Source: Microbacteriaceae bacterium
GTDB taxonomy: Bacteria; Actinomycetota; Actinomycetes; Actinomycetales; Microbacteriaceae
Direction: 5' to 3'
Length of the DNA: 64,000 nt
NCBI GenBank assembly: GCA_003852775.1
Contig: RDDZ01000129.1
Coordinates: 2,857 to 66,856 of the forward strand
A program made the translations under genes and the position numbers. A model generated the notes under the pieces. That model made no database searches. It saw only the letters and a program-made list of their open reading frames with translations, and was not told the DNA's origin. This document shows, piece after piece, positions 9,436-34,923 of the stretch. Within the stretch, counting starts at the first letter, position 1. Every line of letters begins with the position of its first letter.

Positions 9436-9643
9436 ACTCGAGCAAGACGCCACCAAGCTCATCGCGATCGCCGCGACCGACCCCGGCGTGGATCTCGCGG
9501 TGATTCGCCACAATCAAGGTGCCCGCCGCGCCACCGTGCGCGCGCTGAGTCTTGCTTCCGGTCGCATGGCCCCGCGGCGTCTTCGTGATGGCGGCGAGCC
9601 TGCGATCCCCGGTGATTGAACCCGACGTTGTCGTGCGGACTGG

Positions 9644-10240
9644 TTAGCGTCGTCTCGCGGAACTCATCAGGATATGCGCGGTCGCTCCGATCGCCAGGAA
9701 GCCACCCGCGGTCACCCACGCGGCCAGGCTGTCGTCCGGTGCGAGCGCGAAGCCCCAAATCTCGGCGCCAGGGATCAGTCCTGGGCTGACAATGGCGGGA
9801 AGCAATAGAGCGGCAGCGGGCACAATCCCCGCGAGACGCCGGTCGAAGAACGCTGATGCGATCAGCCCGATGCCCCACATGCCGAGCGTCGCCTTGACGG
9901 GAGCCAGGGCGCCAAGCGTGCCGGTATCGCCGATGAGGACGGATGCAAGCATTGTCGAAGCGACGACCAGGAGCGCGGTGATGAGCCATAGCACCGCTTG
10001 CTCGAGTCGCATGGATCGCGCTGCCTGCCTCTCGAACTCGTGGAAGGCGCTGCTCACCGTATAGAGGAGAATCGCGACGACGACGAACTGCGCCGGCACT
10101 GCCAGAGGCACTGCACTCAGGTATCCGTCGTGTGTGATCTTAAGAGCCGGCGCCGCCCATAGTGGAAGCGTGAGTTCGATGAGGACGACCACGGCCAGGA
10201 TCTGGGGCAGTCGCCGGCTGAGGAGCAGTTGCCAGTTCAC
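9644..10240 (-). CDS. polytopic membrane protein (about 6 TMS), probable ABC-2-type permease partner
   Basis: hydrophobic ORF; GTG at 10240 forms a GTGA overlap with the upstream stop; last gene of the ABC operon. Confidence 0.65.
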   Translation of the reverse strand: MNWQLLLSRRLPQILAVVVLIELTLPLWAAPALKITHDGYLSAVPLAVPAQFVVVAILLYTVSSAFHEFERQAARSMRLEQAVLWLITALLVVASTMLASVLIGDTGTLGALAPVKATLGMWGIGLIASAFFDRRLAGIVPAAALLLPAIVSPGLIPGAEIWGFALAPDDSLAAWVTAGGFLAIGATAHILMSSARRR

Positions 10241-11538
10241 GGCTGGAAGTCGCTCGCGTCCCACTCGCATGACCGGATGTTCGCCGTGTGGGCTTGAACC
10301 CAAGCTCGCGCGGAAGCGTTGTCAAGTGAATACAGGCGATCGAGGGCGTCCACGACGCGCGGGTCGTTGCTCCAGGCGCCCACTCCAAGCGCGGTATCTC
10401 CGGTAAGCCATGCCTGCATGACGACGACACCGCCCAGCCCGAAGTCGCCAGCCGGCCCGTCTTGGCCGGCCTGGGTGCAGTTCATGACGTCGACGAGCGC
10501 ACCTTCGACAGAGAACCTAGCGATCTCTGTCGACTGGGGATTCAGATAAAGGCGCGCGAATCCTTGTGGTGCCCCTTGGTGGTCTGAGTCGAGTTGCTGC
10601 TCAAGCTTGTCGAACGCGAGGTCGCTTTCGGAGAAGAGATCGGCGATTCTGCTCCAGGTGTCGGTGAGTTCATCGGCCACCGGGGCGTAGTGCTCGCGAA
10701 CGCGAATGGTGAGGCCCGTATCCGCATCATTCAGGGTGATGAACGCAAGTTCTGCAGGAGCAGGCTCGCGGCTAGTCCGGCCTTGTTGCCCGATCATCAC
10801 GCCTAGGCCCGAGACGATCACGGCTCCGGCAACGATCATCGTCAGGATGGCCGGTGACCTGTAAGCACGGCGGCGTATGAAGCTGGCGGCCGCGAACACG
10901 ACAGCCGCACCGACCGAGACGAGAGCGGCGCCGCCGAAGAACATCGCGTTGGGAAGGCTCGCGTCGATCGCCACGTACTTGCGGAAGATGTTGATCCACG
11001 TGGCCACGTCGCCCGCGCGCCCAGCGAGAGTCGCGCCGTAGAGGGCAAGCGGGAGCACCGTCGCGACTGGTATCGCTGACCAATGCTGAATCGTCTCCGC
11101 GAGCGCGAAACCGATCGTCGTGAAGCTGAGAACCAGCGCAAGGGAATGCAGAAGCAAGATCGGCTCCGGGACTCCGTACAGCCCAATGAGCATCGACCTG
11201 AGCACGAGGACGAGCGCGATGCAGATCCAGGCCGCGACAACCCACGCGATCCCGCCCAGATAGCGCGGAAGAACGCTCAGCGGCGCCGGGATCGCGGAGG
11301 TCCGTCGTGCGTACTCAACGCGGCGCCGCTCATCCCGTAGTCCTTCCCATGCCCCCGCGCCCGCGAGGAACGGAGTGAGGAAGTAGGCAACGTCGAGCAT
11401 CGACGACTCGATCGAAACCCACGCAGCGATCCTGGGGAAGCTGTTCAGCCAGCCGATTGTCGCGCCCGCCAGAGCGAAGATCGGTGCCCAGTAGCGGAAC
11501 CCCGAGTGCCTCAGCTCAATGAGGAATGGGCGCTTCAT
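10237..11538 (-). CDS. membrane protein with an N-terminal multi-TMS permease-like region and a roughly 170-aa C-terminal soluble (likely extracytoplasmic) domain
   Basis: 433 aa; ATGA overlap with the ATPase stop; the C-terminal domain contains 2 Cys. Confidence 0.7.
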   Translation of the reverse strand: MKRPFLIELRHSGFRYWAPIFALAGATIGWLNSFPRIAAWVSIESSMLDVAYFLTPFLAGAGAWEGLRDERRRVEYARRTSAIPAPLSVLPRYLGGIAWVVAAWICIALVLVLRSMLIGLYGVPEPILLLHSLALVLSFTTIGFALAETIQHWSAIPVATVLPLALYGATLAGRAGDVATWINIFRKYVAIDASLPNAMFFGGAALVSVGAAVVFAAASFIRRRAYRSPAILTMIVAGAVIVSGLGVMIGQQGRTSREPAPAELAFITLNDADTGLTIRVREHYAPVADELTDTWSRIADLFSESDLAFDKLEQQLDSDHQGAPQGFARLYLNPQSTEIARFSVEGALVDVMNCTQAGQDGPAGDFGLGGVVVMQAWLTGDTALGVGAWSNDPRVVDALDRLYSLDNASARAWVQAHTANIRSCEWDASDFQP

Positions 11539-12332
11539 GCACTGGCCTGTCGGGTCTGATTGGCTCGCTGGACGAGCGCAGTGTAGGCGCGTTCCAAGGG
11601 CGTATCGCCAGGCATCTTCGGGTCCTCTTCCGCGAGCATCTCGGGAACACTGCCGGCGAACACCGCTCGTCCGCCCTCCATGACGAGCACATGATCGGCG
11701 ATGGCCTTCACGTCCTCGATCAGGTGGGAGCTGATGACGACACAGCGGTCGGCGGCGAGCCCTCGCAGCGTGTCGCGGAATCGGATGCGCTGCTCGGGAT
11801 CCAGTCCCGCGGTCGGCTCGTCCAAGGCGAGCAGACGAGGTCGGTGGACGACGGCGCTGGCGATCCCCGCACGCCGCAGCATTCCTCCAGAGAGACGTCC
11901 AAGTTTGGTGCGCCGGTGGGCGGTGAGGTCGACGAGTGCCAGCGCGTCCGCGATGAACTCGGGCCGCGCCGTCGTGGGCACTCGTTTGAGCCAGGCCGCG
12001 TACTCGAGGAACTCCTGCACGGTGAAGCCGGGGATGTAGCCGAACTGCTGGGGCAGGAATCCGACCTGGCGCATTAGCTGGAGGCGGTCTCGCTCGGTGG
12101 CAGGGAGGTTCACGCCGAGCACGCTGAGTTGCCCGGCGTGAACCCTCTGCATGGTCACGATCGCGTTGAGGAGCGTCGTCTTTCCTGCGCCGTTGCGTCC
12201 TACGAGAGCGTTGACCCCGTTGTCGAAGCGCAACGTCACGTCGTCGACGGCGGCAGTCGCTGCCCGCCGGTAGCGGATGGTCAACCCATGCGCGACTGCC
12301 CCTGATGCGTGCTCCGATGGCGATCGGCCCAT
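11535..12332 (-). CDS. ABC transporter ATP-binding protein
   Basis: Walker A GRNGAGKTT, signature LSGGMLRR, Walker B LLALDEP; ATG at 12332 behind GAGGAAGGAAG. Confidence 0.9.
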   Translation of the reverse strand: MGRSPSEHASGAVAHGLTIRYRRAATAAVDDVTLRFDNGVNALVGRNGAGKTTLLNAIVTMQRVHAGQLSVLGVNLPATERDRLQLMRQVGFLPQQFGYIPGFTVQEFLEYAAWLKRVPTTARPEFIADALALVDLTAHRRTKLGRLSGGMLRRAGIASAVVHRPRLLALDEPTAGLDPEQRIRFRDTLRGLAADRCVVISSHLIEDVKAIADHVLVMEGGRAVFAGSVPEMLAEEDPKMPGDTPLERAYTALVQRANQTRQASA

Positions 12333-12354
12333 ATGCACTTCCTTCCTCGGACGG

Positions 12355-12753
12355 TCAGCACGTCGCCTTGAGCGTGCCGCTGTTCCCGCTGTTGACCTCG
12401 AAGTTGATGCCGGCCTCGGAGAAGTAGACGTGGTCATTGCCATCGTCGCAGCCGTTCGCGCCGACGTAGTAGTCCTTCTTGTTGCCGGAGTCGCTGCCGC
12501 TGGCGATGATCGGGTGCCACCACCCCTCGCTGCGGTGCACTTCCAGCAGCAGGGTCCGCGTCGCGGTGTTGCTGCAGCTGGCGGAGCCCCATCCGTGGAT
12601 GTAGCTGCCGCTCTTGTAGGGCGTGCCGGAGATGACGGTGCAGTTCCCGTCGGTGGCACTGCCGTCGGCGAAGGCGGCGTAACCGCCGACACCGACCAGC
12701 GCGGTCGACAGAACCGCAGCTCCGGCGGCCGCGAGGATCTTCTTCATACGCAT
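12355..12753 (-). CDS. small secreted 4-Cys protein of unknown family (Sec signal peptide)
   Basis: MRMKKILAAAGAAVLSTALVGVGGYAAFA signal; the mature roughly 100 aa are Gly/Ser/Trp-rich; GGGAG lies 8 nt before the ATG. Confidence 0.7.
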   Translation of the reverse strand: MRMKKILAAAGAAVLSTALVGVGGYAAFADGSATDGNCTVISGTPYKSGSYIHGWGSASCSNTATRTLLLEVHRSEGWWHPIIASGSDSGNKKDYYVGANGCDDGNDHVYFSEAGINFEVNSGNSGTLKATC

Positions 12754-12840
12754 GATGCGACTCCCACACTCATTTGCCATCTCGAGTTCGCCAACTTCGC
12801 CGAACTCGCCCGGGCCGGGATCGACCCGTCTACAGAACTG

Positions 12841-12866
12841 GTTTGGCAGCGGCCCGTTTCCTTACA
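12841..12866 (-). promoter_or_regulatory. island motif copy e: TGTAAGGAAAC-GGGCCGCTGC-CAAAC
   Basis: read directly; 88 nt upstream of the start at 12753 and oriented toward it. Confidence 0.6.
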
Positions 12867-12892
12867 CAATCGGCCCCGGCGAGGGTGCAGTC

Positions 12893-13384
12893 TCAGCTCA
12901 CGCAGGTGAGCTGAGTGATGCCCGCGGGGGCGTAGGCGATCGAGTCGCCGTGGCTCACGCTGGCGAGGACACTGCCGCTGGAGTTCTTCGCCTGCACGTA
13001 TCCACTGCCATGCGCGTTGGCAAGGGAACGCACTGCGCTTAGCACGGAGGTGGAAACGGTAGTGTCGCAGGCGGACAGGCTAAGCTTGCTGCCAGAGAGT
13101 GCATACCCCGAGTAGGCGCAGTGATAGCCGGTGGCGCAGGAGCCGACGGACAGTGGACTGAGCTGGCTCGGATCATCGAGCGTGAGGATCATGGCGCGGT
13201 CGTGCCAGGCGATCTCGTTCGGCGCGGTCTGCGTTCCGCCGGGGAACTCTGCGAGGACCGCGTCGATGCGGGCCTGCAGAGCACTCTCGCCGGGGGTCTC
13301 GGTCGCGCTGGCGGCGATCGGCGTGCTCAACATCAGGGCGAGCCATGTCACGCAGCCACCTCGGCGATAGACAAGCCCTCCCAA
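12893..13384 (-). CDS. secreted protein, paralog of 21932..22432; the C-terminal Cys-containing domain has a C-x2-G-x2-C-aromatic motif reminiscent of peptidase-inhibitor I36/SMPI-like domains
   Basis: about half of positions match the paralog by eye (LQARIDAVLAE[FY]PGG..NEIAW, SC[AT][TA]G[YH][HY]CAY.GY.LSGSKLS); start uncertain (TTG 13384, GTG 13351 or ATG 13333). Confidence 0.65.
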   Translation of the reverse strand: MGGLVYRRGGCVTWLALMLSTPIAASATETPGESALQARIDAVLAEFPGGTQTAPNEIAWHDRAMILTLDDPSQLSPLSVGSCATGYHCAYSGYALSGSKLSLSACDTTVSTSVLSAVRSLANAHGSGYVQAKNSSGSVLASVSHGDSIAYAPAGITQLTCVS

Positions 13385-13752
13385 TAGGTGAGGTGGATTG
13401 CAGGGGCGTCCTGCGCCGGCAATCGCGTCATCGCTAGGCGAAGCTCGACATCCTCGAGGTCCCCATCCCAAGTTGCCACCTCCTGCAACTCCTCCATCAC
13501 CTGCTGTCGCATCCAGGCTTGCTGCGTCGCACGACGTTGATGCTCATTGCCGATGAGATTCCTTGCTGTCCGCAGTAGCCAGCGGATCGTGATCGTGGTG
13601 CCAGACAGATGCTTCTCCAGCGCCCGAGCGAACGCCTCAGCCGTCAGGTCTTCGGCCAGCTCTCGGTTGTCGACTCGCTGGCAGATGTACCGTTCGATCG
13701 TCCGATAGCTGCGTTCGTAGAGGCTCGTGAAGAGCTGAATGTCTGGCTCCAC
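13348..13752 (-). CDS. ECF sigma-70 paralog truncated inside region 4.2 (lacks the -35 recognition helix)
   Basis: aligns with the 20402..20935 sigma through ...LTYWEGLSIAEVAA and then stops; GTG start 45 nt downstream of motif copy d. Confidence 0.6.
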   Translation of the reverse strand: MEPDIQLFTSLYERSYRTIERYICQRVDNRELAEDLTAEAFARALEKHLSGTTITIRWLLRTARNLIGNEHQRRATQQAWMRQQVMEELQEVATWDGDLEDVELRLAMTRLPAQDAPAIHLTYWEGLSIAEVAA

Positions 13753-13796
13753 GTGCCTCCCCTCTCACGCTGGGACAACACCGTCCCGCATATACA

Positions 13797-13822
13797 GTTT
13801 GGCGAGAGCCCGAATCCTTACA
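13797..13822 (-). promoter_or_regulatory. island motif copy d: TGTAAGGATTC-GGGCTCTCGC-CAAAC
   Basis: read directly; precedes the truncated sigma gene. Confidence 0.6.
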
Positions 13823-13910
13823 CGCGGATTGGATTCTTGCTCCGCCTCCCTCAGCGGGTTGTCGGCGACCGTCCGATCAACCTCCGACGGGTGAGCCCTA
13901 CGATCGCACC

Positions 13911-14243
13911 GTGGACGACACTGCGGATCTGAGCGACGAGGTCGCCCGCTCGCTCGCCCGCAAGGCGTTCGCGTACCACATGATGAGCATCGAGCTCGGG
14001 CCGATGTCCGGGGCCAGCATCCGCGACACGCTGCTCATGGTGTGGCAGGACGCGGGCAGTCCGCCCGGCGCCTTCACGCGCGCTGCGCGGGTCGCAGCGA
14101 TCCTGGTCGACCGCATGGCCGAGTCGGACGAGGACGAGGACGATCCGCTGCGCGGGCTCGGCGTCTCCCGTGAGCAGCAGATCGCCATCGCCCAGCAGGG
14201 GGCAGCCTTCCTCACGACGCTCGCGCGCGAACTCGAGGGATAG
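13911..14243 (+). CDS. hypothetical acidic cytoplasmic protein
   Basis: 110-aa ORF with ordinary composition and no signal peptide; the only plus-strand ORF in this part of the island. Confidence 0.45.
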   Translation: MDDTADLSDEVARSLARKAFAYHMMSIELGPMSGASIRDTLLMVWQDAGSPPGAFTRAARVAAILVDRMAESDEDEDDPLRGLGVSREQQIAIAQQGAAFLTTLARELEG

Positions 14244-14290
14244 CCGCACCGGGAGCCGGTGCGCGGCGCCAGCTCAGGTCATCTCGAGCG

Positions 14291-14689
14291 TCAGTCCTCG
14301 AAATGGAAGGGCCCCGGGCATGACCTGATCGGATTGTCCGGCGCCGTGCGAACGTCGAGACGCTCGTCGACCAGCGTCGTCCCGTCGCTCATGGTCACCA
14401 CCACACGAGCGATCGTCGGTGGATTGATCGAGTCTCCGCTTCGGTAGGGCTGCTCCTGCGGGATCCCGAGTCGACCGTCACCGTCGATCGCGACCTCTGC
14501 CGGCGTACAGCCGTCATCGAGGCATGCCGACAAGATCGCGCCATCCGGCAGCGACCCCACGATCTTCACCGCGATCGGATCGGTGTTGATGTAGCCGACG
14601 GTCGTGCATGCGCAGCCGGAGAGCACCACCGGCAGGGCTGGCAGCAACGCGACCGCGACCCCGAGACGGAGTAGTCGCGGTGCCTTCAT
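14291..14689 (-). CDS. lipoprotein of unknown function
   Basis: MKAPRLLRLGVAVALLPALPVVLSGC lipobox; several Cys in the mature part. Confidence 0.65.
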   Translation of the reverse strand: MKAPRLLRLGVAVALLPALPVVLSGCACTTVGYINTDPIAVKIVGSLPDGAILSACLDDGCTPAEVAIDGDGRLGIPQEQPYRSGDSINPPTIARVVVTMSDGTTLVDERLDVRTAPDNPIRSCPGPFHFED

Positions 14690-14762
14690 GGTCAAGATGC
14701 TAAGCCGCGGGGGTTTCGGGCCGTCGCTGTGGCGAGTGGCCTGCGACATCTCCGAGGTCGTA

Positions 14763-15407
14763 TTAGGTCCCGTAGATGCTCTCGGGGGTCTGCGGGCAGT
14801 TCGCGAAGACTCTCTTCATGTCGGCCTCTGCAATGGCGATGTCCTCGAACGGCGACCATCCCGCGTTCGTCTGGATGAACACGGCCACGCTGGGCGGGTC
14901 GGGCTCGACGCTGTATCCCTCCCTCTCAAGACAGCTCACGAGCTCACCTGTCCGGTACTCGTAGAGCCTGGTCAACGCATCGGTCGACAGCGGGGTCATG
15001 TACTTGAGTTGGGTGGGGTACTTCAGCTCGCACGTATAGATCGCCAGATTCAAGGACTGGCGGAGAGTGGGGTCTTCGATCGGCGGGTAGCGGATCCCTT
15101 GTCCGTCGGCCGTTTCCGTGGCATCGAATCCCGCTTCTTGGAGGCATGCGATCTGCGTCGGTGCCCACTCGTTGAGGGTGATGAGCCGGACGAGCTCCAC
15201 CTTGGGGGGATCAACGATCCCGAGTTGGCCCGCGAGAGCAGTCGCAGTCTCATCCAGGTAGGCGCGGGTGGCGGAGTCCACTTCCGTTGCGCTCGAGTCG
15301 CTCGAGTCCGGGGGGTTTAGGGGGTCACGTTGAGGCGTGCACGCAGTGATGGTGAGCGCAACCGTGCTCACCATCACCGCGACTAGTGCCGTTCGAAGAG
15401 CCTTCAC
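14763..15407 (-). CDS. lipoprotein, paralog of 19414..20076
   Basis: VKALRTALVAVMVSTVALTITAC lipobox; GTGA overlap with the upstream small gene; shared blocks IYTC.[LI][KR]YP, PDPPS[VL].VF. Confidence 0.7.
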   Translation of the reverse strand: MKALRTALVAVMVSTVALTITACTPQRDPLNPPDSSDSSATEVDSATRAYLDETATALAGQLGIVDPPKVELVRLITLNEWAPTQIACLQEAGFDATETADGQGIRYPPIEDPTLRQSLNLAIYTCELKYPTQLKYMTPLSTDALTRLYEYRTGELVSCLEREGYSVEPDPPSVAVFIQTNAGWSPFEDIAIAEADMKRVFANCPQTPESIYGT

Positions 15408-15781
15408 GAATGGCAGACCGCGTTCCCGTAGGTGATGTCGCCGCCGATTCCGGTGAGGAACACCCGCCAGTAGTAGACGGTCGAGTAGCTGGTGAGCGAC
15501 CACCTCGTCTGCGAGGTGCTGCCGTTGTTCCAGTGGTCCAGGACGATGTAGTTGGCCTCGTGGTTGATGCCGCCGGTTGACGTCGACTGCACCTGCACGT
15601 GTGGCACCGAGCCGGAACAGACCTTGTTGTAGCCGTCGATCTGCGAAGCAGCCGAGGCCGCGACTGCCGGCACGACGGCCGCCGCCAGACCGACGGCGAG
15701 TGCGGCCGCGATCACCCGTGTCTTGCCCATGCGCTTCGTCGACCCTGGCTTGACAGCCGATCGTGGGCTTCGTCTCAGCAT
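15404..15781 (-). CDS. small secreted protein bracketed by two Cys, unknown family
   Basis: ATG at 15781 behind GAAGGAGGA; signal ...AVVPAVAASAAS; the mature roughly 80 aa have Cys near both ends. Confidence 0.7.
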   Translation of the reverse strand: MLRRSPRSAVKPGSTKRMGKTRVIAAALAVGLAAAVVPAVAASAASQIDGYNKVCSGSVPHVQVQSTSTGGINHEANYIVLDHWNNGSTSQTRWSLTSYSTVYYWRVFLTGIGGDITYGNAVCHS

Positions 15782-15832
15782 GATGTCCTCCTTCATCTTC
15801 GACCTTCATCTTCAACTGCCCTTGACTGTTCT

Positions 15833-15858
15833 GTTTGCCGAGTCGGCGAATCCTTACA
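15833..15858 (-). promoter_or_regulatory. island motif copy a: TGTAAGGATTC-GCCGACTCGG-CAAAC
   Basis: read directly; 52 nt upstream of the start at 15781. Confidence 0.6.
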
Positions 15859-15936
15859 AGATCTCGACCTTGTGAGGAGGGCGCCGCAGCTGATTCCGAT
15901 TGATCCCATGCAGCGATCCGGCGCGGTGCACTGTCT

Positions 15937-17046
15937 CTAGGGCACCCGCAGCTCACGGATCGGATCACGTCGTGCGGCGACAACGGCGGGGATCAAGGCC
16001 GCGACGACGCTCACGGCGATCGCTAGAACCGCGATTGCGGCGGTGAAGGCCAAGCCGGGGAGTGGATCGCCGCTGAACGCCAGCACCATGCTCGCAACGC
16101 CCGAACCGAGTGCAGCGCCGAGGGTCGCGAGTACGAGAGTTTGGGTGAGGAGGATGCTCACGATCAGTCCGCGGGTGGCGCCCAGGGCTCGGCGCCGACC
16201 GAAGTCCTTGCGGCGCAGCGTGACGAGCCCGGTCAGGATCGCCGCGACGAGTAGCCCACTGACGGCGAGGATCAGCAATACCAAACCACGTCCGAAGGCG
16301 CCGAGCTGCCCCTGCACAAGGGCCCGCAGCTGTGCCAGGGCCTCGCTCGTGGTGATCGTGATCTTGGTCGGGTCGTCGACGGCGAGCAAGGACTGTACCG
16401 CTGGGGCAACTGCAGCGACGAGGTCTGGCCGCTCGGCCACGACGACGAGCACGGCGACCGGTTCCGGCTCGACCGGTGCCCGTGGCACGAACAGGGCGGG
16501 CTCGAGAAACCCGAGCCAGTCTGGAATGTCCATTTGCCCGGCGACGGGGTAGTTCGCGCCGCTCTGGTTGGTGACGGAGCCTGCGTGGTCGACGAGACCG
16601 AGCTGCCCGAGCGACAGGGCGGTTCCCCAGGCAGTCGAACCCGGTAGCGCGGACGACTCGGGGATTCCGATCGACGTCAGGTGCGCGCCATAGGCGAAGC
16701 GAGCCGCGACCTTCGTTCCGTCCGGGATCAGCGTGTTGGTCACGTCGAAGGCAGGTCCGAACGCGGCGACCCATTCGATGCCGTCCACGGTGCTCAGCCG
16801 CGTCACGACCGAACTTGTCAGCCCGGCGGCGGGTTCGGCGCGCACGATGGTCGTCCGGGTTCCGGCGGAGTCGATCGAGCCGAGGACAGCCTGCTCCGCG
16901 CCGACGGTGCGGCCGGTGGTCAGCAGGACGGTTGCGCACAGCCCGGCGACCATGATGATGGTCGCGATGGAGGCGATCGGGCTGGACGCCGCGGCAGCTA
17001 GCGCCTCGCGGATGACGCCGCCGAGTCGGCGGAGCCCGGCGCTCAC
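15937..17046 (-). CDS. FtsX/MacB-type ABC permease (4 TMS with a large extracytoplasmic loop)
   Basis: TM1, a roughly 210-aa loop, then 3 C-terminal TMS; GTGA overlap with the ATPase stop. Confidence 0.8.
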   Translation of the reverse strand: MSAGLRRLGGVIREALAAAASSPIASIATIIMVAGLCATVLLTTGRTVGAEQAVLGSIDSAGTRTTIVRAEPAAGLTSSVVTRLSTVDGIEWVAAFGPAFDVTNTLIPDGTKVAARFAYGAHLTSIGIPESSALPGSTAWGTALSLGQLGLVDHAGSVTNQSGANYPVAGQMDIPDWLGFLEPALFVPRAPVEPEPVAVLVVVAERPDLVAAVAPAVQSLLAVDDPTKITITTSEALAQLRALVQGQLGAFGRGLVLLILAVSGLLVAAILTGLVTLRRKDFGRRRALGATRGLIVSILLTQTLVLATLGAALGSGVASMVLAFSGDPLPGLAFTAAIAVLAIAVSVVAALIPAVVAARRDPIRELRVP

Positions 17047-17684
17047 AGGGTGATGCTCCGATCGCAGCGTTCGACCAGGACCGGGTCGTGCGTCACGACG
17101 ATCACCGTCGCACCGCTGTCGGCGTGCTCGTGGAACGCGTCGACGACAACATCCGAGGATGCTGGGTCCAGGTTCCCGGTCGGTTCGTCGGCGAGCAGGA
17201 TCCGGGGTGTGCCCAGCAGTGCCCGGCACAGCGCGATGCGCTGCGCTTGCCCTCCGGATACCTGGCCAGGCTTCGCCTCGGACCGCAGCTGAACGCCGAA
17301 CCGTTCGAGAAGTCCCTCGGCGACCGGCACGGCCTCCGAGCGCGACTCGCCCCGATACAGCGCGGTCTCCAGCACGTTGTCGAGCACCGTGCGCGTGGCG
17401 TCGAGAGCCGCGTCCTGGAACACGAAGCCGAACTGCCGCGCCCGGAGCCTCGCCCGTGCCCGGTCGGGGAGGGATTGCACCGGCTCGCCGTCGAGCAGTA
17501 CCTGCCCCGCCGCAGGTGCGAGCATCAGTCCCAGCAGATACAGAAGGGTCGATTTCCCCCGACCGGAGGGGCCGGTGATCGCCACGACCTCCCCGGCGTT
17601 GAACGAGGCCGACCACTGGTCCAGCAGCGGTACGGTCGACTCGTAGCCGAACGTGAGATCCCGTGCATCGAGGAGTGCTGGCAT
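17043..17684 (-). CDS. ABC transporter ATP-binding protein (MacB/LolD-type)
   Basis: GPSGRGKST, VSGGQAQRIALCRAL, LLADEPTGNLD. Confidence 0.9.
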   Translation of the reverse strand: MPALLDARDLTFGYESTVPLLDQWSASFNAGEVVAITGPSGRGKSTLLYLLGLMLAPAAGQVLLDGEPVQSLPDRARARLRARQFGFVFQDAALDATRTVLDNVLETALYRGESRSEAVPVAEGLLERFGVQLRSEAKPGQVSGGQAQRIALCRALLGTPRILLADEPTGNLDPASSDVVVDAFHEHADSGATVIVVTHDPVLVERCDRSITL

Positions 17685-17688
17685 GGGG

Positions 17689-18780
17689 TCAGCCTCCGCT
17701 TGCCGGCACGCGCACGCGCAGGCCCGCGCTGACTCCCTCGATGACGGACATGCCTCGGGCGCTCGTCACGACGGTGACTCGGTGCTCGGTGCCGTCCTCC
17801 TCGAGCACAACGATCGTGCCGTCGGCGCGGGAGACCAGCGCGGCGCTCGGCACGGTCAGTCCCGTCACCGTCTCGACGGTCACGACTTGTGAGCGAAGCA
17901 GCGATTGCTCGGTGACGGAGATCGTGCCGCACTCGGTTCCGCACACCGGTGCGCCGTCGGCGCCGCCGAGGATCACGTCGATCGTCCCGCCCTGTTGCTG
18001 TGCAACCCGGTCGACGACGAACCCTTCCCAGGCTTGCCCGTCGGGTCCGGTGACCTCGACCCGCGTCCCATCGGGCATCATCCCGGACTGGGACTCGGTT
18101 ACCGGCACCCGGAACGTCGGGGCCGGCGGGAGGCCCAAGATGACGGGGTCGCTAGCGCCGAGTGACGCGCCGCGCACCACCTTGTCCGCATCGAGCGAGA
18201 TCCGCGTCGGCAGCGACGGCACGAATACCACGTCGCCCGCTTGCACCACACCGTCGACATCGACGCCGAGGCTCTCCTGCCACGCCTCGACCGCCGCCTG
18301 CGTCAGCCAACCGAAATCGCCCGAGACATCCCCCCTGTAGAAGCCGAGCTGGGTCAGCATCGCCTGGAGTTGTGCGACATCAGCCCCGGCCGTGTTTCTG
18401 GAGAGGGTTCGAAACGCGGGTACATCTCCCTGCGCGATCACTACGGGACGCAGGTTGACTGCATAGAGCACCGAGCCCACACTGACCTCCTGGCCGGCCG
18501 TGACCGAGACCGAGGTGACGGTGCCGCTCGCAAGGTTCGCAGCAATCGGGATCGGCTTCCACTCGGCCACGGTGTTCAGGTTGATGCTCGATCCGACCTC
18601 ACCGCGAACGACCTCCGCCGTCGTGAACGGCGTCGAATCCAGTACGTCGGGCGGAGGCGCGAAGATCGTGCTGCCCGCCCAGCCGACAGCTGCGCCCGCG
18701 GCCAAGAGAATGACGCCGCCGAGCACGCCACCGACCCACCAGCGGGCGCGAGACTTCGTACGACCTGATGACGAGTTCAT
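17689..18780 (-). CDS. membrane-anchored HlyD/MacA-like adaptor with an inserted peptidoglycan-binding-like repeat
   Basis: N-terminal TM; DVAQLQAMLTQLGFYRGDVSGDFGWLTQAAVEAWQ (PG_binding_1-like); beta-barrel-like C-terminus; ATG at 18780. Confidence 0.75.
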   Translation of the reverse strand: MNSSSGRTKSRARWWVGGVLGGVILLAAGAAVGWAGSTIFAPPPDVLDSTPFTTAEVVRGEVGSSINLNTVAEWKPIPIAANLASGTVTSVSVTAGQEVSVGSVLYAVNLRPVVIAQGDVPAFRTLSRNTAGADVAQLQAMLTQLGFYRGDVSGDFGWLTQAAVEAWQESLGVDVDGVVQAGDVVFVPSLPTRISLDADKVVRGASLGASDPVILGLPPAPTFRVPVTESQSGMMPDGTRVEVTGPDGQAWEGFVVDRVAQQQGGTIDVILGGADGAPVCGTECGTISVTEQSLLRSQVVTVETVTGLTVPSAALVSRADGTIVVLEEDGTEHRVTVVTSARGMSVIEGVSAGLRVRVPASGG

Positions 18781-19065
18781 GCGCCCCCTCTCGGCCGTAC
18801 CGATTCTTCCATCGAACACGGTTCCGCCGAACTCCCGCACAGCTTGGAGCTCGAGAAGCGGCCGCGTGAACGGGTGCAGTGGGTACTACCGAAGCGTCGT
18901 TGGCTCTCAATAAACAAGAGATAGGCCCTCCTAGGACTGCAGCGCGCCGGCGTCGGACGTGCGGGTGCCACAGGCACCACCCCGACCGCGTGCGTCGCGA
19001 TGATGCCTGCCGCTTGGAGTCGCGAATCGCGCGACGCCTTCATCGACTCCAGGTGATGCTCCCCG

Positions 19066-19368
19066 TCAGGTGCAGTAGGGGGTCGGGCCGCTGCTGAAGG
19101 AGTAGATGGTGGCCGCGGTCCAGTTGGCGTCGGTGTAGTTCGAAACGCTGTAGTGGACAGCGGTGTCGGACCAGCTCCAGACCTGCGAGCCAATCCAGTG
19201 CGTCAGATCCGCGCCGGTCGCGGAAGACGTCAGCGAGACCGCAGACGCTCCACCCGGGCAGTGCTTGTGCCCGCTTCCGCTCGCCATGGCGAAGGCCGGC
19301 GCGGCCAGGCCGAGCCCGATTGCCACTCCCAGCGAGGCTCCGATCAGGAGCCGCTTCCTCTTTCTCAT
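19066..19368 (-). CDS. small secreted protein bracketed by two Cys; distant relative of 15404..15781
   Basis: MRKRKRLLIGASLGVAIGLGLAAPAFA signal; mature roughly 73 aa; shared pattern C.G....V.[LV].S[ST].TG...H..W. Confidence 0.7.
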   Translation of the reverse strand: MRKRKRLLIGASLGVAIGLGLAAPAFAMASGSGHKHCPGGASAVSLTSSATGADLTHWIGSQVWSWSDTAVHYSVSNYTDANWTAATIYSFSSGPTPYCT

Positions 19369-19413
19369 GGTTCCACCCTTCCTTTCGTGATTCAGCGGAT
19401 GGGCCGACAGCGC

Positions 19414-20076
19414 CTACTCGTAAAGATCCGTCGGGTACTGCGGGCAGGCGGCGTTGATTTCTTGCCATTGATCGTTGGACTTGACCTGATTCTGAACATC
19501 GCCGTAGATGTTCCACGCGTCCGGGCTTCCGTGCTTTTCGAGGAACACCTCGAGGCTCGGTGGTTCCGGCACCGCGATGCCGAAGGATTCAAGGCATGGC
19601 GTGAGGACCGTCTTCGAGTAGTCGTAGATGCGACGCAGCTGCTCGCCGTTGAGCGGTCCCTGGAACTTCGGGTCGATCGGGTATCGGATCTTGCACGTGT
19701 AGAGCGCGACCGCGTAAGCCTCGCCTTGCTCAGCAGTATCGAAGAAGACGGACCCATCAGGTTGGGCCACGGCATCGAACCCTTCGCCGTTCAGGCATTC
19801 AGCGATAGTCGTCGCCCACTCGGGTGGCGCGACCGTGCGGACTAGGTCCGTTTCGGGACGCACCGCCCCGGGGTATCGAGCAGAGACTTGAGCCCACGCA
19901 GCGTCCGCCACCTCGCTGAGAGAAGAGTCCGAAGTTGAAGGCGCGGGCGGCTCGCTTCCCGGTGCGCTGCACGCCGTCAGGAGGAATGCGGCTGCCACCA
20001 TCGCGTATGCCGCTGCCTGGCCCCGGCGCAAGGCCGAGAGCCCGCCGGGGCGAAGCTGAACACCTTGACTCGCCAT
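19414..20076 (-). CDS. lipoprotein, paralog of 14763..15407
   Basis: ATG at 20076 behind GGAAGG; ...AAAFLLTAC lipobox. Confidence 0.7.
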   Translation of the reverse strand: MASQGVQLRPGGLSALRRGQAAAYAMVAAAFLLTACSAPGSEPPAPSTSDSSLSEVADAAWAQVSARYPGAVRPETDLVRTVAPPEWATTIAECLNGEGFDAVAQPDGSVFFDTAEQGEAYAVALYTCKIRYPIDPKFQGPLNGEQLRRIYDYSKTVLTPCLESFGIAVPEPPSLEVFLEKHGSPDAWNIYGDVQNQVKSNDQWQEINAACPQYPTDLYE

Positions 20077-20191
20077 GATGTACCTTCCGCAGTCGCGTGA
20101 TGTCTTCGCCATCAGATGTTCTCCGGAAACTCCGGCCCCTCCCGGGTGACGTACCCCGCGTTGGTCTAGGACGGGCGCGCCCGGCATCCCT

Positions 20192-20221
20192 TCACAGTCG
20201 ATCGGGGCTTCGTCTCAGCAC
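20192..20221 (-). pseudogene. relic of a small-secreted-protein gene start (GTG-LRRSPDRL-stop)
   Basis: GGAGGACATCGTGCTGAGACGAAGCCC matches GGAGGACATCATGCTGAGACGAAGCCC at 15781; a 1-nt deletion then gives TGA. Confidence 0.6.
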
Positions 20222-20257
20222 GATGTCCTCCTGCATCGGAATACCCTCGAGTGTTCT

Positions 20258-20283
20258 GTTTGCTGAGTCGGCGAATCCTTACA
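20258..20283 (-). promoter_or_regulatory. island motif copy b: TGTAAGGATTC-GCCGACTCAG-CAAAC
   Basis: read directly; faces the lipoprotein operon. Confidence 0.6.
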
Positions 20284-20330
20284 AACTTCGGTCTGTCGAG
20301 CGGCGACGCGCAGCGCGCCCGAAATCTGAA

Positions 20331-20356
20331 TGTAAGGATTCGGCGGCTCGGCAAAC
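20331..20356 (+). promoter_or_regulatory. island motif copy c: TGTAAGGATTC-GGCGGCTCGG-CAAAC
   Basis: read directly; 46 nt upstream of the sigma GTG start; back-to-back with copy b. Confidence 0.6.
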
Positions 20357-20401
20357 TCTTATACGAGAAGCAGACTGTGCCTACAGCCAGGGGGAGGGTT
20401 A

Positions 20402-20935
20402 GTGGAGCCGGATCCCGAGGCTTTCACCAAGCTCTACCTCAGCAACTACCGGACGCTGGTCCGCTACACCTACCTACGTGTCAACGACCGAGCCTTGGCG
20501 GAGGACCTTGCCGAAGATGCGTTCCTGCTCGCCTGGGAGAAAGCACCGAGCCTGGAAGCGGTCACCCCCCGCTGGCTGTTCGCCACCGTGAGGAATCTGA
20601 TCGGCAACGAATACCAACGACGCGATCGAGAGCGCATCAGAGTACAGCAAGCGGGAATGGAGGAAGCCGCGAGCGTGGAGGCGTGGGGATTGCACATCGA
20701 GCACATCGGACTCCGCCTGGCGATGGCCGAGCTGCGCCCGGATGACTCGCTCCTGCTCCAGCTGACCTACTGGCACGGGTTGTCCGCTGCCGAGACCGCT
20801 GAGTTCCTGGACTGCACGGTCGCCGCGGTGTGGGTTCGGCTGACTCGGGCTCGCGCGGCGTTGCGCACGCTCCTGGACGATGCCAACGTCATGCCTTCGC
20901 GTCGACGAGATCGAGGCGGTAAGGCTCATGGATGA
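20402..20935 (+). CDS. ECF (group 4) sigma-70 factor, full length
   Basis: region 2 (DLAEDAFLLAW, RWLFATVRNLIGNEYQRR) and region 4.2 HTH (LSAAETAEFLDCTVAAVWVRLTRAR). Confidence 0.85.
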   Translation: MEPDPEAFTKLYLSNYRTLVRYTYLRVNDRALAEDLAEDAFLLAWEKAPSLEAVTPRWLFATVRNLIGNEYQRRDRERIRVQQAGMEEAASVEAWGLHIEHIGLRLAMAELRPDDSLLLQLTYWHGLSAAETAEFLDCTVAAVWVRLTRARAALRTLLDDANVMPSRRRDRGGKAHG

Positions 20936-21929
20936 CCTGACCCGGCTGCTGCGCGAGAACAATCCCTTCCGGGACGCGCCGTTGCCCGAACGCGCGACGC
21001 GACGGCTTGACGACATCATCTCGGGCCGACGGGAGACTCGCCACGATGTCGCCCTCCCACCGCTTCGAAGCCAACGGACGCCCGCGCTGCTGGCGGGGGC
21101 GGCCTTCGTCGTGACGCTGGTGGTCGTCGCGCTGGTCCTGGTGTCCGTGCGCCCGCAGGTTGCGATGGCTGTGACTCCGAACCTGCTCGAGCTCCGCCCG
21201 ACCGTGACCACCATCGACACCTTGCGCGAGGATCTCGTGACGTCACCCCTGAACCCGCGGCCGACCGCGACTAGCCGTGGCGCCCAGTGGGAAGGCTGGT
21301 TCCTTCAGCTCGACGCCGACCGACCGGCGGCGACCTTCATCCAGCCGCAGCGCGTCCAGATCGCCTGGGGCGAGGATTTCTCGGGCAGCAGCCGCATCGT
21401 CGCCGGGACGCCGATGACCGCCGATGGCTCCGTGATCGAGCCGGTCCCCGCGGGTGCGGCCGCGCCGGGCACCACGCTCTACGAGGAGACCTGGGGACCT
21501 GGCGAGTACCCGGTGCCCTTCCCGGAGGCTCCGCCCGAGGACGCTGCTGGGATGCGCGGCTACCTCGAGGCCTTCCTCGCCTCGCTCGGCGTCACCGAGG
21601 CGGGGTCACGCTCCGCCGGCGAGTATCTGTATGCCCTCAGCTCGCTGATGCAGTTCTGGACTCTCGGCGACGCGGCCCAGCGCACCGCTATCGAAGTGAT
21701 CGTCTCCGCTCCTGGCTTCCAGGTGGCGGGTGAAACGACCGATCGGGCCGGCCGTGCCGGGGTCGTCCTGGACATCGCGCCGACCGAGCTCGAGCCCGGC
21801 TATCGGACGCAGCTCGTCGTCGACATCCGATCCTGGCGACTGCTGGCCGTCGAGCGAATCAGTATCGCCGGCGACCCAGACTTCCACATTGCCCCTGATT
21901 CGGTAACCGACTACACCCTCTGGAGATAG
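20928..21929 (+). CDS. single-pass membrane protein in the anti-sigma position with a roughly 260-aa extracytoplasmic domain
   Basis: 8-nt overlap with the sigma stop; N-terminus MDDLTRLLRENNP...; TM ALLAGAAFVVTLVVVALVLVSV. Confidence 0.7.
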   Translation: MDDLTRLLRENNPFRDAPLPERATRRLDDIISGRRETRHDVALPPLRSQRTPALLAGAAFVVTLVVVALVLVSVRPQVAMAVTPNLLELRPTVTTIDTLREDLVTSPLNPRPTATSRGAQWEGWFLQLDADRPAATFIQPQRVQIAWGEDFSGSSRIVAGTPMTADGSVIEPVPAGAAAPGTTLYEETWGPGEYPVPFPEAPPEDAAGMRGYLEAFLASLGVTEAGSRSAGEYLYALSSLMQFWTLGDAAQRTAIEVIVSAPGFQVAGETTDRAGRAGVVLDIAPTELEPGYRTQLVVDIRSWRLLAVERISIAGDPDFHIAPDSVTDYTLWR

Positions 21930-21931
21930 CA

Positions 21932-22432
21932 ATGCGCAACATCACGACCGGTCGCGGCCGTATGGCTGCCCTCGCCGTCATCGGGGCCATCGCCCTGATC
22001 CTCGGCACGCCGCTCGCCGCATCAGCGGCGGACAAGGACTCCGACGCGCTCCAGGCGCGCATCGACGCTGTGCTCGCCGAGTACCCCGGCGGCGTGCAGA
22101 TCGCCGCCAACGAGATCGCCTGGGACGAAGGTGCCGTGGTGCTCACGCTCGATGCTCCCGGCTCCGCGTTCGGCGTGCTGGACGTCGGCTCGTGCACGGC
22201 TGGCCACTACTGCGCCTACAACGGCTACAGCCTCAGCGGAAGCAAGCTGAGCTTCAGCTCGTGCGCCACCCCGCAGCCCACCGGCATCATCGGCACGGTG
22301 CGGTCGGTCGCCAACGCACGCACTAGCGGCTCCGTCTACGCCCTCAACTCGGGCGGCGGCATCCTGGCGACCATCGGCGCGAACGACTCCCTGCCTATTG
22401 CGCCCGGCGGCATCACTGACCTCTCCTGCTGA
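21932..22432 (+). CDS. secreted protein, paralog of 12893..13384 (I36/SMPI-like Cys motif)
   Basis: signal MAALAVIGAIALILGTPLAASA; starts 2 nt after the anti-sigma stop. Confidence 0.75.
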   Translation: MRNITTGRGRMAALAVIGAIALILGTPLAASAADKDSDALQARIDAVLAEYPGGVQIAANEIAWDEGAVVLTLDAPGSAFGVLDVGSCTAGHYCAYNGYSLSGSKLSFSSCATPQPTGIIGTVRSVANARTSGSVYALNSGGGILATIGANDSLPIAPGGITDLSC

Positions 22433-22455
22433 GGTCGGCAGACCGCCGCCGATAT

Positions 22456-22471
22456 CGGCGGTCGGCGTGAG
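22456..22471 (+). terminator. GC-rich perfect palindrome CCGCCGATATCGGCGG downstream of the sigma operon (no U tract)
   Basis: read directly, 24 nt after the stop codon. Confidence 0.3.
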
Positions 22472-22506
22472 CGCGGTGGAGCGCGGCACGAGGAAGCGGC
22501 GTGTCG

Positions 22507-22532
22507 TGTAAGGAATGGGCGTCCCAACAAAC
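22507..22532 (+). promoter_or_regulatory. island motif copy f: TGTAAGGAATG-GGCGTCCCAA-CAAAC
   Basis: read directly; 66 nt upstream of the ATG at 22598. Confidence 0.55.
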
Positions 22533-22597
22533 CGTCTAGGTAAGCGGAGATACCGCGGCCGCCCCCTGATCGGGACAATCGGCAAGGATGGACGATC

Positions 22598-23236
22598 ATG
22601 GGATCTACGAAGAAGCTCGGGCTGCTGTTCGCAGCAGCCCTCGCGATGGTCTTCATCGCTCCCGCCGCAGCTCAGGCTGCGGCGGCAGACTCGCCACCGC
22701 CGGCGACTGCATCAGACAGCTCTAACGTGAACAGCCTGATCGCGAGCGATCCGAACGCGGAGTTCGTCTCGCTCGAGGTCGCAGAGAAGCAGTACGGGTT
22801 CGACCCCTATGCCGCCGATGCGACGGAGAGCACCGGCCCCGTCGTCACGCCGTTCTACGCATGGTGGGGATGTGACTGGGACGCCGTCACGGACTATCCG
22901 CACGTGAGCTCGGGCCAGGCATCGGTTCACGGGTACTGGGTCTACAACAGCGGCGACTGCCCGGCTACGGCCACTGTAACCGTCAACCTCCAGGCGCTTT
23001 GGTGCAGCGGGATGTGGGGTTGCAGCTGGTACACGCTGGCGACCGACGTCGCGACTGGCGTCTACCCGGGCTCGGGCACGGGTCACTGGGCCACGCCCCA
23101 TTCCCCTTGTGCGACCACGTCCGTCGTCGGCTGGCGGGGCTCGGTTTTTGTCGAGCCGACGGACTTCTGGCACCCCTACGGCTGGACGGACGGCACGCCG
23201 CAGAACCTCTCCTGCTCCCCGCCGGATCCGAGCTGA
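22598..23236 (+). CDS. secreted Trp/Cys-rich protein of unknown family
   Basis: signal MGSTKKLGLLFAAALAMVFIAPAAAQA; the mature part has 8 Cys and many Trp (WWGCDW, LWCSGMWGCSWY). Confidence 0.7.
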   Translation: MGSTKKLGLLFAAALAMVFIAPAAAQAAAADSPPPATASDSSNVNSLIASDPNAEFVSLEVAEKQYGFDPYAADATESTGPVVTPFYAWWGCDWDAVTDYPHVSSGQASVHGYWVYNSGDCPATATVTVNLQALWCSGMWGCSWYTLATDVATGVYPGSGTGHWATPHSPCATTSVVGWRGSVFVEPTDFWHPYGWTDGTPQNLSCSPPDPS

Positions 23237-23715
23237 TGCCTGACGACCTGAGGCGGGGCCGGTTCGTGCCGCTCGGTGACCCCGAGGCGGCGCGACCCGA
23301 CCCCGCCAAGCGTCTGCCCTTCGACCTCTCCAAACTGTCGGTGACGGGTCTGGTCATCGTCTGCGAACTCGCTCCGCCGCCACCGGGCAACGCCCGCCCG
23401 AGCATGAGCATGACGATGACCCAGTACCTGCGGCTATCGGATCATTCGATGATTCGCCTCGACATGGATCGAGGCGTGGATACGTTCAAGTTCGGATACG
23501 CCGACCCGCCTTCCTGGAAACGGACTGCCGCAGAGGTTGTCGCGGAAGTGCTGACGCTGATCCAGGGTGATGAGCCGGATCCAGGATCGTTCCCCTGGCA
23601 CGAGTATGCGGAGGCCGCTAGGTTGCGCGGGATCTCGGTTGACGCTGAGGCACTGCGCGACCTGCCCCACGCGGTGCTGCTGTCCGATGAGCTGGCTGCC
23701 ACATTCGAGTTCTGA
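23236..23715 (+). CDS. hypothetical cytoplasmic protein translationally coupled to the Trp/Cys-rich secreted protein
   Basis: TGATG stop/start overlap; 159 aa; no signal peptide or TM. Confidence 0.5.
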   Translation: MPDDLRRGRFVPLGDPEAARPDPAKRLPFDLSKLSVTGLVIVCELAPPPPGNARPSMSMTMTQYLRLSDHSMIRLDMDRGVDTFKFGYADPPSWKRTAAEVVAEVLTLIQGDEPDPGSFPWHEYAEAARLRGISVDAEALRDLPHAVLLSDELAATFEF

Positions 23716-23809
23716 CCTACGTCCGCAGAGGCGAAGGACGGGCGCGGGAATCGCTGGAGGATCAGCGCATCCGTCACCTCCCCTACTTCCTGTTGACGCG
23801 TCGAACCGT

Positions 23810-24470
23810 CTACCGGGCTTCAGGATTCTTGAACTCGCGGGTTTCGCGAGACATCGCTGAGGTCGTATCAAACAGGACGGTCTCCTCGGGGTGCAGCTGT
23901 GTCTGCAAGAGCATGGAGTGGTCCTTGATCCTCCAGAGCGCCTGCCCGAGCCCGAGCGTGGGGAGCATCGACTGCTCGGTGCTGGTGAGTCCGAGTGCCT
24001 TGGCCGTCGGGCCGAGCTGGTCGGTCTCCTGCCGGAAGATCACCCTGGTCTCGGCGTTGGCGAGCAGAGAGGTGCCGAGCGCGTGCAGGGCGGTGCCGGT
24101 GTCGCCGACGGTGTCGAGGTCGGAGAGCTTGTGGAACAGGAGCATGTTGGCGATGCCGTAGTGCCTCGCGAGGCGCCAGGCGGCGTCCATGCGGCGCAGC
24201 AGGGCGGAGTGGCTCATCACGCACCAGGCTTCGTCGTAGATCACCCACCGCTGCCCGCCGGTGGGGTCCATGAGGGCGGCTTCCATCCACGCGGAAGCGC
24301 ACGTCATCAGGATCGACAGCAGCGCGGCGTTCTCCGACACGCGGGAGAGATCGAGAGTGAGCATCGGCAGCTCGGGGTCGAAGGTCTCGGTGCTGGGCCC
24401 GTCGAAGAGCCCTTGGAGGTCCCCGGCGATCAGGCACCGCAGCGCGTGCCCGACCTGTCGGCCGTCCTCG
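23810..24470 (-). pseudogene. C-terminal fragment of a VirB4/TraE-like conjugative ATPase (ICE relic)
   Basis: VIYDEAW (Walker B-like), ARHYGIANMLLFHKLSDL, ETRVIFRQE; the frame opens directly after the stop of the preceding small gene, so no N-terminal half is present. Confidence 0.55.
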
Positions 24471-34880: not shown

Positions 34881-34923
34881 CGGGCGCACTTCTCCTCGGG
34901 AACGGGTGACGAACGCTGTTGAG

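Follow-up and report, generated by a model that had tools for sequence, protein, structure and literature searches.

Six copies of a two-box motif predicted to form the self-regulated promoter set of an ECF sigma factor in a Microbacteriaceae bacterium

Background

Extracytoplasmic function (ECF) sigma factors commonly transcribe their own genes, and promoter prediction for these factors is conventionally founded on this property (PMC7826278). The present study deals with a stretch of 64,000 nucleotides (nt) from a Microbacteriaceae bacterium (GenBank assembly GCA_003852775.1, contig RDDZ01000129.1, positions 2,857 to 66,856; hereafter the window), where the gene of one such factor (20402-20935; the island sigma, named after the surrounding region described below) is accompanied by six copies of the motif TGTAAGGAWWS-N10-CAAAC (sites 1 to 6, or P1 to P6, Table 1). 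On sequence grounds, there is good reason to expect that these six sites are promoters read by the island sigma.

Two well-described ECF systems offer points of comparison. Promoters of sigma-D (ECF40) from Corynebacterium glutamicum and mycobacteria display GTAAC(A/G) at -35 and GAT at -10, and the C. glutamicum promoter PrsdA was experimentally defined as GTAAC-15 nt-CTCGAT (PMC6338062). The model proposed in the same work places SigD residues Ala166 and Val169 against the T of GTAAC (PMC6338062). Promoters of Escherichia coli sigma-E (RpoE, ECF02) are composed of GGAACTT and of a -10 box (T/C)GGTCAAAA with the core TCAAA (PMC1312014). Among the groups of the ECF classification, ECF219, ECF221 and ECF222 are examples of candidate actinobacterial ones (PMC7826278).

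Occurrence and geometry of the six sites

Exact pattern search of the window returned exactly six matches, with the coordinates and strands given by an earlier note on this DNA, whereas none appeared in 100 dinucleotide-preserving shuffles. All six were comprised within 9.7 kb of the 64-kb window and, as had been claimed, the G of GTAAGG was separated from the C of CAAAC by 20 nt in each of them (6/6). Expressed as a distance between boxes, this corresponds to 15 nt from GTAAG to CAAAC, or 16 nt from TGTAA to CAAAC. When two mismatches were allowed in TGTAAGGA-N13-CAAAC, zero extra sites were found in 64 kb. Likewise, when the spacer could vary from 12 to 15 nt and up to two mismatches were tolerated, a single extra weak match was obtained, at 129(+), where chance alone gives about 1.07 per shuffle. 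A repeat finder to which no pattern was supplied also recovered the site family (D1, I2, I4-I6).

The near-match (129-155(+), TGCAAGTATGTTGCACTAGACGCAAAC, two mismatches, 14-nt spacer) was thus at chance level and was not retained as a seventh site. It overlaps repeated GTTGCA/TGCAAC words resembling an operator, and it is located about 100 nt 5' of a gene (ATG at 254) whose N-terminus looks IclR-type by eye. Another division of the motif, GGAWW-N16-hexamer, was also discarded as the general -10: it was perfect at site 6 only (GGAAT-N16-CGTCTA), the other five sites being devoid of CGTC at this position while CAAAC was invariant.

The gene map was established by reading the sequence around each site, translating candidate genes and comparing the products with Pfam and NCBIfam; genes called independently on the same sequence (public assembly contig) led to the same map. 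According to both, the six sites were without exception (6/6) intergenic and faced the downstream gene, with gaps from CAAAC to the start codon of 87, 44, 51, 36, 45 and 65 nt for sites 1 to 6, respectively. The earlier statement that each copy lies 37-88 nt before the next gene start agrees with these gaps, except that the 36 nt of site 4 reach only a 9-codon remnant. Flanks of sites 3 and 4 were about 93% identical as far as the first codons, and sites 2 and 5 precede paralogous genes, so that the six sites do not represent six independent events. The motif was devoid of internal symmetry, its boxes being neither palindromic nor direct repeats.

A scan for sigma-70-type promoters and terminators gave site counts no higher than in shuffles, and no RNA family was matched by an Rfam scan of positions 9-26 kb. 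Scanning metagenomes with TGTAAGGAT-N12-CAAAC returned at least 120 stretches; among the matches listed, only one (L071) encodes a relative of the sigma factor or of its neighbours. The remaining stretches are taken to be chance matches of a 14-base pattern in a very large collection, and as such uninformative on whether the motif is confined to the island.

Conservation of the motif in related genomes

Protein searches placed the island sigma in a small clade centred on Microbacteriaceae. Scanning one genome per species provided 69 loci encoding sigma relatives, and the comparison covered 1.26 Mb around these relatives (10 kb on either side of the sigma gene) together with the 64-kb window of the source genome. 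The two-box motif occurred just 5' of related sigma genes in about 45 actinobacterial genomes from Microbacterium, Leucobacter, Amnibacterium, Sinomonas and Streptomyces; it was found at the same position before the sigma gene in loci L001-L007 and L190 as well as in about 40 further ones. With a simple two-box score, about 45 of the 69 loci reached at least 12/14, a value attained by mostly 0-2.5% of random segments from the same locus. Loci devoid of the motif, for the most part those of the remotest relatives (identity of 36% or below), are probably members of other ECF groups. The motif was also strongly attached to its position, since 46 of the 50 strong matches in the 1.26 Mb were situated 400 nt or less from a sigma start, a zone comprising 4.4% of the bases. 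Three of the four matches outside this zone are evidently further target promoters.

A clear relationship was observed between the variants of the motif and the sigma clades (CAAAC/GAAAC, GACAC, GGAAAT and GACAT). Relatives whose sigma factors were 85% and 53% identical to the island sigma displayed TGTAAGGATTC-N10-CAAAC, and two Leucobacter genomes (about 50%; relatives at 50% and 48%) displayed TGTCAAGATT..CAAAC and TGTAAGGATC-N11-GAAAC. The corresponding sequences were TG(T/C)AAGGATTC-N10-GAAAC in Amnibacterium (40% identity), (C/T)GTAAGGT-N13-GACAC in the Microbacterium testaceum group and (T/C)GTCAGGATC..GGAAAT in Sinomonas. Streptomyces displayed GTAAGGA in 29/29 loci and GTAAGGA(T/A)-N14-GACAT in 28/29. 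When eight upstream regions were aligned, no columns other than TG..A.GAT and AAAC proved invariant, spacer and flanks varying freely.

The Streptomyces box was located about 45-75 nt upstream of the start of the protein match. In 28/29 of these loci (L008-L048, L063), a conserved GTG(T)GGAGACC, within which the sigma gene starts, came 8-10 nt behind GACAT. Accordingly, sigma mRNAs of the Streptomyces clade may be leaderless and start just after the -10 box, and a leaderless-like GTG at such a distance from GACAT lends indirect support to the motif being a promoter.

Alignment with orthologous loci, which had been put forward as a check, was favourable in that motif, geometry and position were kept across genera. 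In the 95%-identical strain L001, P3 is kept at 4397(-) and P6 is kept with one spacer change. The sigma gene was the only one always adjoining the motif, usually with a single-pass membrane protein gene next to it. Divergent motif pairs, such as that formed by P4 and P5, were also present in loci L002, L003, L004, L015, L036 and L190. The relative with the 53% identical sigma displayed a minimal locus, where one copy precedes genes for the sigma, the membrane protein and an I36-like protein, and the other copy precedes those for a small secreted I36-like protein and an ATP-binding cassette (ABC) transporter. In Amnibacterium soli (locus L007), some 9 kb separate the first sigma gene from another related one (501-926), which is 39% identical to the query.

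Since the motif is conserved before related sigma genes and its variants follow the sigma clades, it is best regarded as the promoter of the island sigma. Comparative evidence thus speaks strongly for the earlier proposal of a cognate, autoregulated promoter: an asymmetric, oriented and rigidly spaced motif tied to one sigma lineage is what the rule of ECF autoregulation predicts. It is shared throughout the clade and is not specific to the island. That the regulon is encoded in cis, as the earlier note had it, is an overstatement beyond the 64-kb window and the 10 kb on either side of the sigma gene in relatives.

The sigma operon and the proposed circuit

By its domains and size, the island sigma is a true ECF (group IV) member of the sigma-70 family. 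It displayed Pfam domains Sigma70_r2 (residues 11-76) and Sigma70_r4_2 (104-154), and scored 65.3 bits against NCBIfam TIGR02937 (cut-off 42.9). Its gene is the sole intact sigma gene of the window, the only other one being the truncated copy behind P2.

The second gene of the operon encodes a protein related to the CU044_5270 family (NCBIfam NF038083, E = 7e-17, 62 bits, under the curated cut-off of 100), a family that carries no assigned function. Its translation revealed one hydrophobic segment after a cytoplasmic N-terminus of about 55 amino acids (aa). Gene position, overlap with the sigma gene and single-pass topology are those of an anti-sigma factor, and the gene is kept directly 3' of the sigma gene in relatives; its product is probably the anti-sigma factor of this sigma. 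The third gene product is similar to peptidase inhibitor family I36. The match to Pfam PF03995 was marginal (23.4 bits, cut-off 21.1; 47 of 69 profile positions), and inhibitor activity would be a putative one. The trio of sigma, membrane protein and I36-like protein recurs in loci from Microbacterium, Mycetocola and Nakamurella.

In the circuit proposed here, region 4 of the island sigma would read the upstream box (T)GTAAGGA(T) and region 2 the downstream box (C/G)AAAC. RNA synthesis would begin a few nucleotides past CAAAC and generate leaders of about 30-80 nt with visible GGAGG-type ribosome-binding sites. P5 would drive the sigma together with the probable anti-sigma membrane protein and the secreted I36-like protein, thereby creating positive feedback. 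An envelope signal would lift the hold of the membrane protein, and the freed sigma would then fire the other five sites, which would stand before operons whose products are small secreted proteins containing Cys, lipoproteins and, probably, two ABC transporters. The motif, its geometry and orientation and its conservation beside related sigma genes are observed; we infer that the sigma binds the motif, which box is -35 and which -10, where transcription starts, that the membrane protein acts as anti-sigma factor, and the signal.

Several points weigh against this circuit. The -35/-10 split was set by analogy, and with 15 nt after GTAAG the gap ranks among the shorter ones of ECF promoters. 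A natural regulon does not usually consist of perfect copies alone, as with the six seen here, and their perfection may partly result from duplication, as the common flanks of sites 3 and 4 illustrate. P2 precedes a truncated sigma gene and P4 a 9-codon remnant, so that not every copy need be used. These boxes could also be read by a second related sigma factor whose gene is located in another part of the genome. Finally, no anti-sigma domain (zf-HC2, RskA-type) was detected in the membrane protein by Pfam at E of 0.01 or less.

The last but one of these points leads to another explanation, in which the motif does function as an ECF-type promoter but serves a different sigma factor, whose gene lies elsewhere, the island sigma being a target within a cascade. 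Actinobacteria average 17.7 ECF sigma factors per genome (PMC7826278), the inspected part of the source genome amounted to 64 kb, and L007 provides an example of two related sigma genes in one genome. Yet, the motif stays with the sigma lineage in at least five genera and its variants follow the clades; at minimal loci such as L190, the sigma is the sole regulator beside two motif copies. Self-regulation being in addition usual for ECF sigma factors, we consider a foreign reader to be unlikely. It would be similarly surprising if the motif were the operator of a DNA-binding transcription factor, either repressor or activator. Binding sites of regulators can also look like a conserved 26-nt site before co-regulated genes, but the two boxes are unrelated in sequence, and are neither palindromes nor direct repeats. 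They are strictly oriented relative to the downstream gene, at a promoter-like position, with a spacer that is free in sequence and fixed in length. Moreover, a sigma gene is always found beside the motif, where no transcription-factor gene is conserved.

Duplication could also be taken further than in the preceding objection, by considering all copies as inert leftovers of segmental duplication or as a small dispersed repeat. This would agree with the near-identical flanks (about 93%) of sites 3 and 4, with the decayed genes behind P2 and P4, and with the rearrangement of the region between close strains. Outside the 3/4 pair, however, similarity ends at the edges of the boxes, and boxes are identical beside proteins that are only 50% identical. 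They also persist across genera, with all copies intergenic and correctly oriented, which makes inert copies very hard to believe in. A promoter set read by the island sigma is therefore retained as the preferred explanation.

The decayed P2 cassette

The earlier note stated that two copies of the motif precede two ECF sigma paralogs. This is the case for P5 and the intact gene, but the paralog behind P2 is truncated, with an incomplete region 4. It is 50% identical to the intact sigma over 133 aa, stops at position 134 of the 177-residue alignment and lacks the last helix of region 4. Without this helix it could not read the -35 box, and it is probably non-functional. The truncated protein is nearer to a Leucobacter sigma (57%) than to the intact one of the island (50%).

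The I36-like paralog of the cassette is 57% identical to the intact copy (PF03995, 22.4 bits). The cassette corresponds to a sigma / membrane protein / I36-like unit that underwent an internal deletion, the membrane-protein gene being gone. The boxes of P2 are perfect despite this decay, and identical boxes thus stand before two sigma genes whose products are 50% identical.

Genes downstream of the remaining sites

Coordinates of the sites and genes are compiled in Table 1.

Table 1. Motif sites and genes of the sigma island (window coordinates)
Feature	Position	Strand	Remarks
P1	12841-12866	-	exact pattern match
P2	13797-13822	-	exact pattern match
P3	15833-15858	-	exact pattern match
P4	20258-20283	-	exact pattern match; divergent from P5, 47 nt apart
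P5	20331-20356	+	TGTAAGGATTC-N10-CAAAC, exact match; 45 nt 5' of the sigma start codon
P6	22507-22532	+	exact pattern match
ECF sigma factor, 177 aa	20402-20935	+	regions 2 and 4 only; presumed motif reader
CU044_5270-like single-pass membrane protein, 333 aa	20928-21929	+	start overlaps sigma gene end by 8 nt
Secreted I36-like protein, 166 aa	21932-22432	+	third gene of the sigma operon
Truncated sigma paralog, 134 aa	13348-13752	-	behind P2
I36-like paralog	12893-13345	-	P2 cassette; starts inside signal peptide
Secreted 132-aa protein	12355-12753	-	behind P1
ABC ATPase	11535-12332	-	P1 unit
433-aa membrane protein	10237-11538	-	P1 unit
Secreted 125-aa protein	15404-15781	-	behind P3
Two lipoproteins	14763-15407 and 14291-14749	-	P3 unit
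9-codon remnant VLRRSPDRL*	20221-20192	-	directly behind P4
Lipoprotein	19414-20112	-	behind P4 remnant
Secreted 100-aa protein	19066-19368	-	P4 unit
MacB-type ABC export genes	15937-18780	-	Pfam PG_binding_1 (adaptor-like), ABC_tran (ATPase), FtsX (permease)
Secreted Cys-rich 212-aa protein	22598-23236	+	behind P6
159-aa protein, cytoplasmic-looking	23236-23715	+	no signal peptide; second in P6 unit

The layout of the P1 unit, in which a motif copy precedes genes for a small secreted protein and then for an ABC transporter, was also found in a relative (L190-L192). In the P3 unit, the first two genes are joined by a GTGA stop/start overlap. The 125-aa protein of this unit has only three homologue clusters among 5.8 billion proteins, which share one conserved Cys close to either terminus of the mature protein. 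Its AlphaFold model, computed from a four-sequence alignment, was unusable (mean predicted local distance difference test score, pLDDT, 40; predicted template modelling score, pTM, 0.22). The 5' untranslated region (5'UTR) of P3 (15790-15825, minus strand) displayed a short tandem duplication, GAAGATGAAGGTC GAAGATGAAGGAG, which is absent from the P4 copy and creates extra in-frame ATG codons 5' of the likely start at 15781.

Behind P4, the 9-codon remnant is homologous to the 5' end of the gene for this same 125-aa protein (repeat D3), and the first intact gene is located about 145 nt downstream. The MacB-type genes have no motif copy of their own, none being present between 18840 and 19066; transcription from P4 may read through into them. 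The lipoproteins encoded at 14763-15407 and 19414-20112 are paralogous (32% identical) and display conserved Cys pairs without any Pfam match. Members of this lipoprotein family, which includes one more at 8796-9344 of L001, adjoin a small secreted protein in each unit, a pairing that may represent a partner or immunity-like arrangement.

A variable island with exchanged genes

The region at about 10000-24100 looks like a variable island. Its G+C content is 64-69%, as compared to 70-75% in the flanking 2-kb bins. Alignment with the 95%-identical strain L001 is interrupted at 13897 and 24122 and contains an indel (20088-20318); segment 10237-13897, with P1, P2 and one ABC system, is missing at the corresponding place of L001. 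Neither an integrase nor a flanking transfer RNA (tRNA) gene was identified at the island. Two tRNA-Ser genes (33474-33565, GCT, and 34923-35008, TGA, both on the minus strand and 1.4 kb apart) occur well outside of it.

In the window and in L002, mature domains with no relationship to each other stand behind a common promoter, 5'UTR and run of ~16 initial codons (MLRRSPRSAVK, then similar residues). At site 4 of the window, this promoter-plus-leader front end survives a second time, as the 9-codon stub. At 805-1214 of L002, an intact secreted protein of 116-121 aa displays the same leader with a mature domain unrelated to that of the 125-aa P3 protein, and L001 carries, in a 1.3-kb stretch at the divergent promoter (8627-9917), a different secreted-protein/lipoprotein pair. 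All this looks like a turnover of cassettes behind a conserved promoter and leader.

A broader interpretation joins an uncharacterised actinobacterial ECF group to an island that would be a sigma-gated, polymorphic array of effector/immunity-like (bacteriocin-like) genes. The group would be defined by the promoter (T)GTAAGGAT-N13/14-(C/G)A(A/C)A(C/T), and its core would consist of the sigma, the CU044_5270-like membrane sensor and the secreted I36-like protein. In this Microbacteriaceae lineage, the promoter and the short leader conserved with it would act as a front end for repeated use, behind which small secreted proteins would be exchanged, each accompanied by its lipoprotein or cytoplasmic partner and by ABC exporters. 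The common leader before unrelated domains, the pair swapped in L001 and the three homologue clusters of one target all point in this direction; as a whole, the interpretation is speculative and we hold it to be possible rather than probable.

Implications

Within 12 kb, the locus offers a clean and directly checkable regulon for an unstudied ECF sigma clade of Microbacteriaceae and Streptomyces, comprising a promoter, a loop of self-regulation, a membrane protein as candidate sensor and a small number of target operons. The clade consensus given above is usable for target gene prediction in related genomes. Sigma and promoter also form a candidate orthogonal pair for high-GC hosts in synthetic biology.

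Comparison with known ECF systems

Full-length alignment to 12 library sigma factors (ECF14, 27, 36, 38, 39 and 40) gave at most 31% identity to the island sigma. The nearest solved or named factors, both weak matches, were M. tuberculosis SigL (PDB, E = 1.5e-9) and Streptomyces venezuelae BldN (ECF121, E = 6.8e-9), whose promoters differ from the island motif. Membership of the BldN family was rejected, as the NCBIfam BldN model attributed 57.7-58.9 bits to both sigma copies for a cut-off of 206. No named subfamily was matched by the island sigma above cut-off in the Pfam and NCBIfam scans.

Sigma-E shares with the present system a self-regulated ECF promoter and CAAA inside the -10 box, which provides an ECF precedent for a CAAA(C) downstream box. 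The resemblance does not extend upstream, where GGAACTT contrasts with TGTAAGGAT in the island, so that the combination GGAACTT...TCAAA is not encountered here. Furthermore, the distance between the boxes of sigma-E promoters is several bases longer than in the island motif, the host is a proteobacterium and the anti-sigma factor is of the RseA type.

Similarities to sigma-D were more extensive. Both are actinobacterial systems whose upstream box has GTAA as its core and is separated from the downstream box by 15 nt (GTAAG-15 nt-CAAAC in the island), both have their promoter before the sigma or anti-sigma operon in many genera, and the targets of both include envelope proteins and lipoproteins. 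Over 42 aa of region 4, the island sigma and C. glutamicum SigD are 45% identical, and residues Ala142 and Val145 of the former align with Ala166 and Val169 of the latter. Yet, SigD of C. glutamicum and M. tuberculosis match the island sigma only in region 4 (33-42 aa). A likeness limited to this region, which reads the -35 box, fits with a common GTAA box combined with a different downstream box. In the island, the fifth base is a G followed by a conserved GAT (GTAAGGAT) instead of GTAAC(A/G), GTAAGG being present in 6/6 sites and in nearly all relatives. The downstream box is (C/G)AAAC or GACAT, in contrast to the GAT of ECF40 promoters. The partner protein is CU044_5270-like and not RsdA, and the regulon is different.

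These precedents do not agree with the suggestion, made in the earlier note, of an undescribed promoter class. The motif is clade-wide, including dozens of Streptomyces genomes, and its parts are known from elsewhere (GTAA with 15 nt for sigma-D, CAAA for sigma-E). No paper with GTAAGG in an ECF context was found in the literature searched, and the supplements of Rhodius et al. 2013 are devoid of GTAAGG; the exact consensus may thus be undescribed in print, while the class itself is not new. Automated ECF promoter predictions may already cover the motif. Like the groups of the ECF classification 2.0 and the ECF Hub (PMC7826278), the present system associates a bipartite clade motif 5' of the sigma gene with a conserved neighbouring membrane regulator. 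Its circuit is of the textbook ECF type and leaves the understanding of ECF regulation unchanged.

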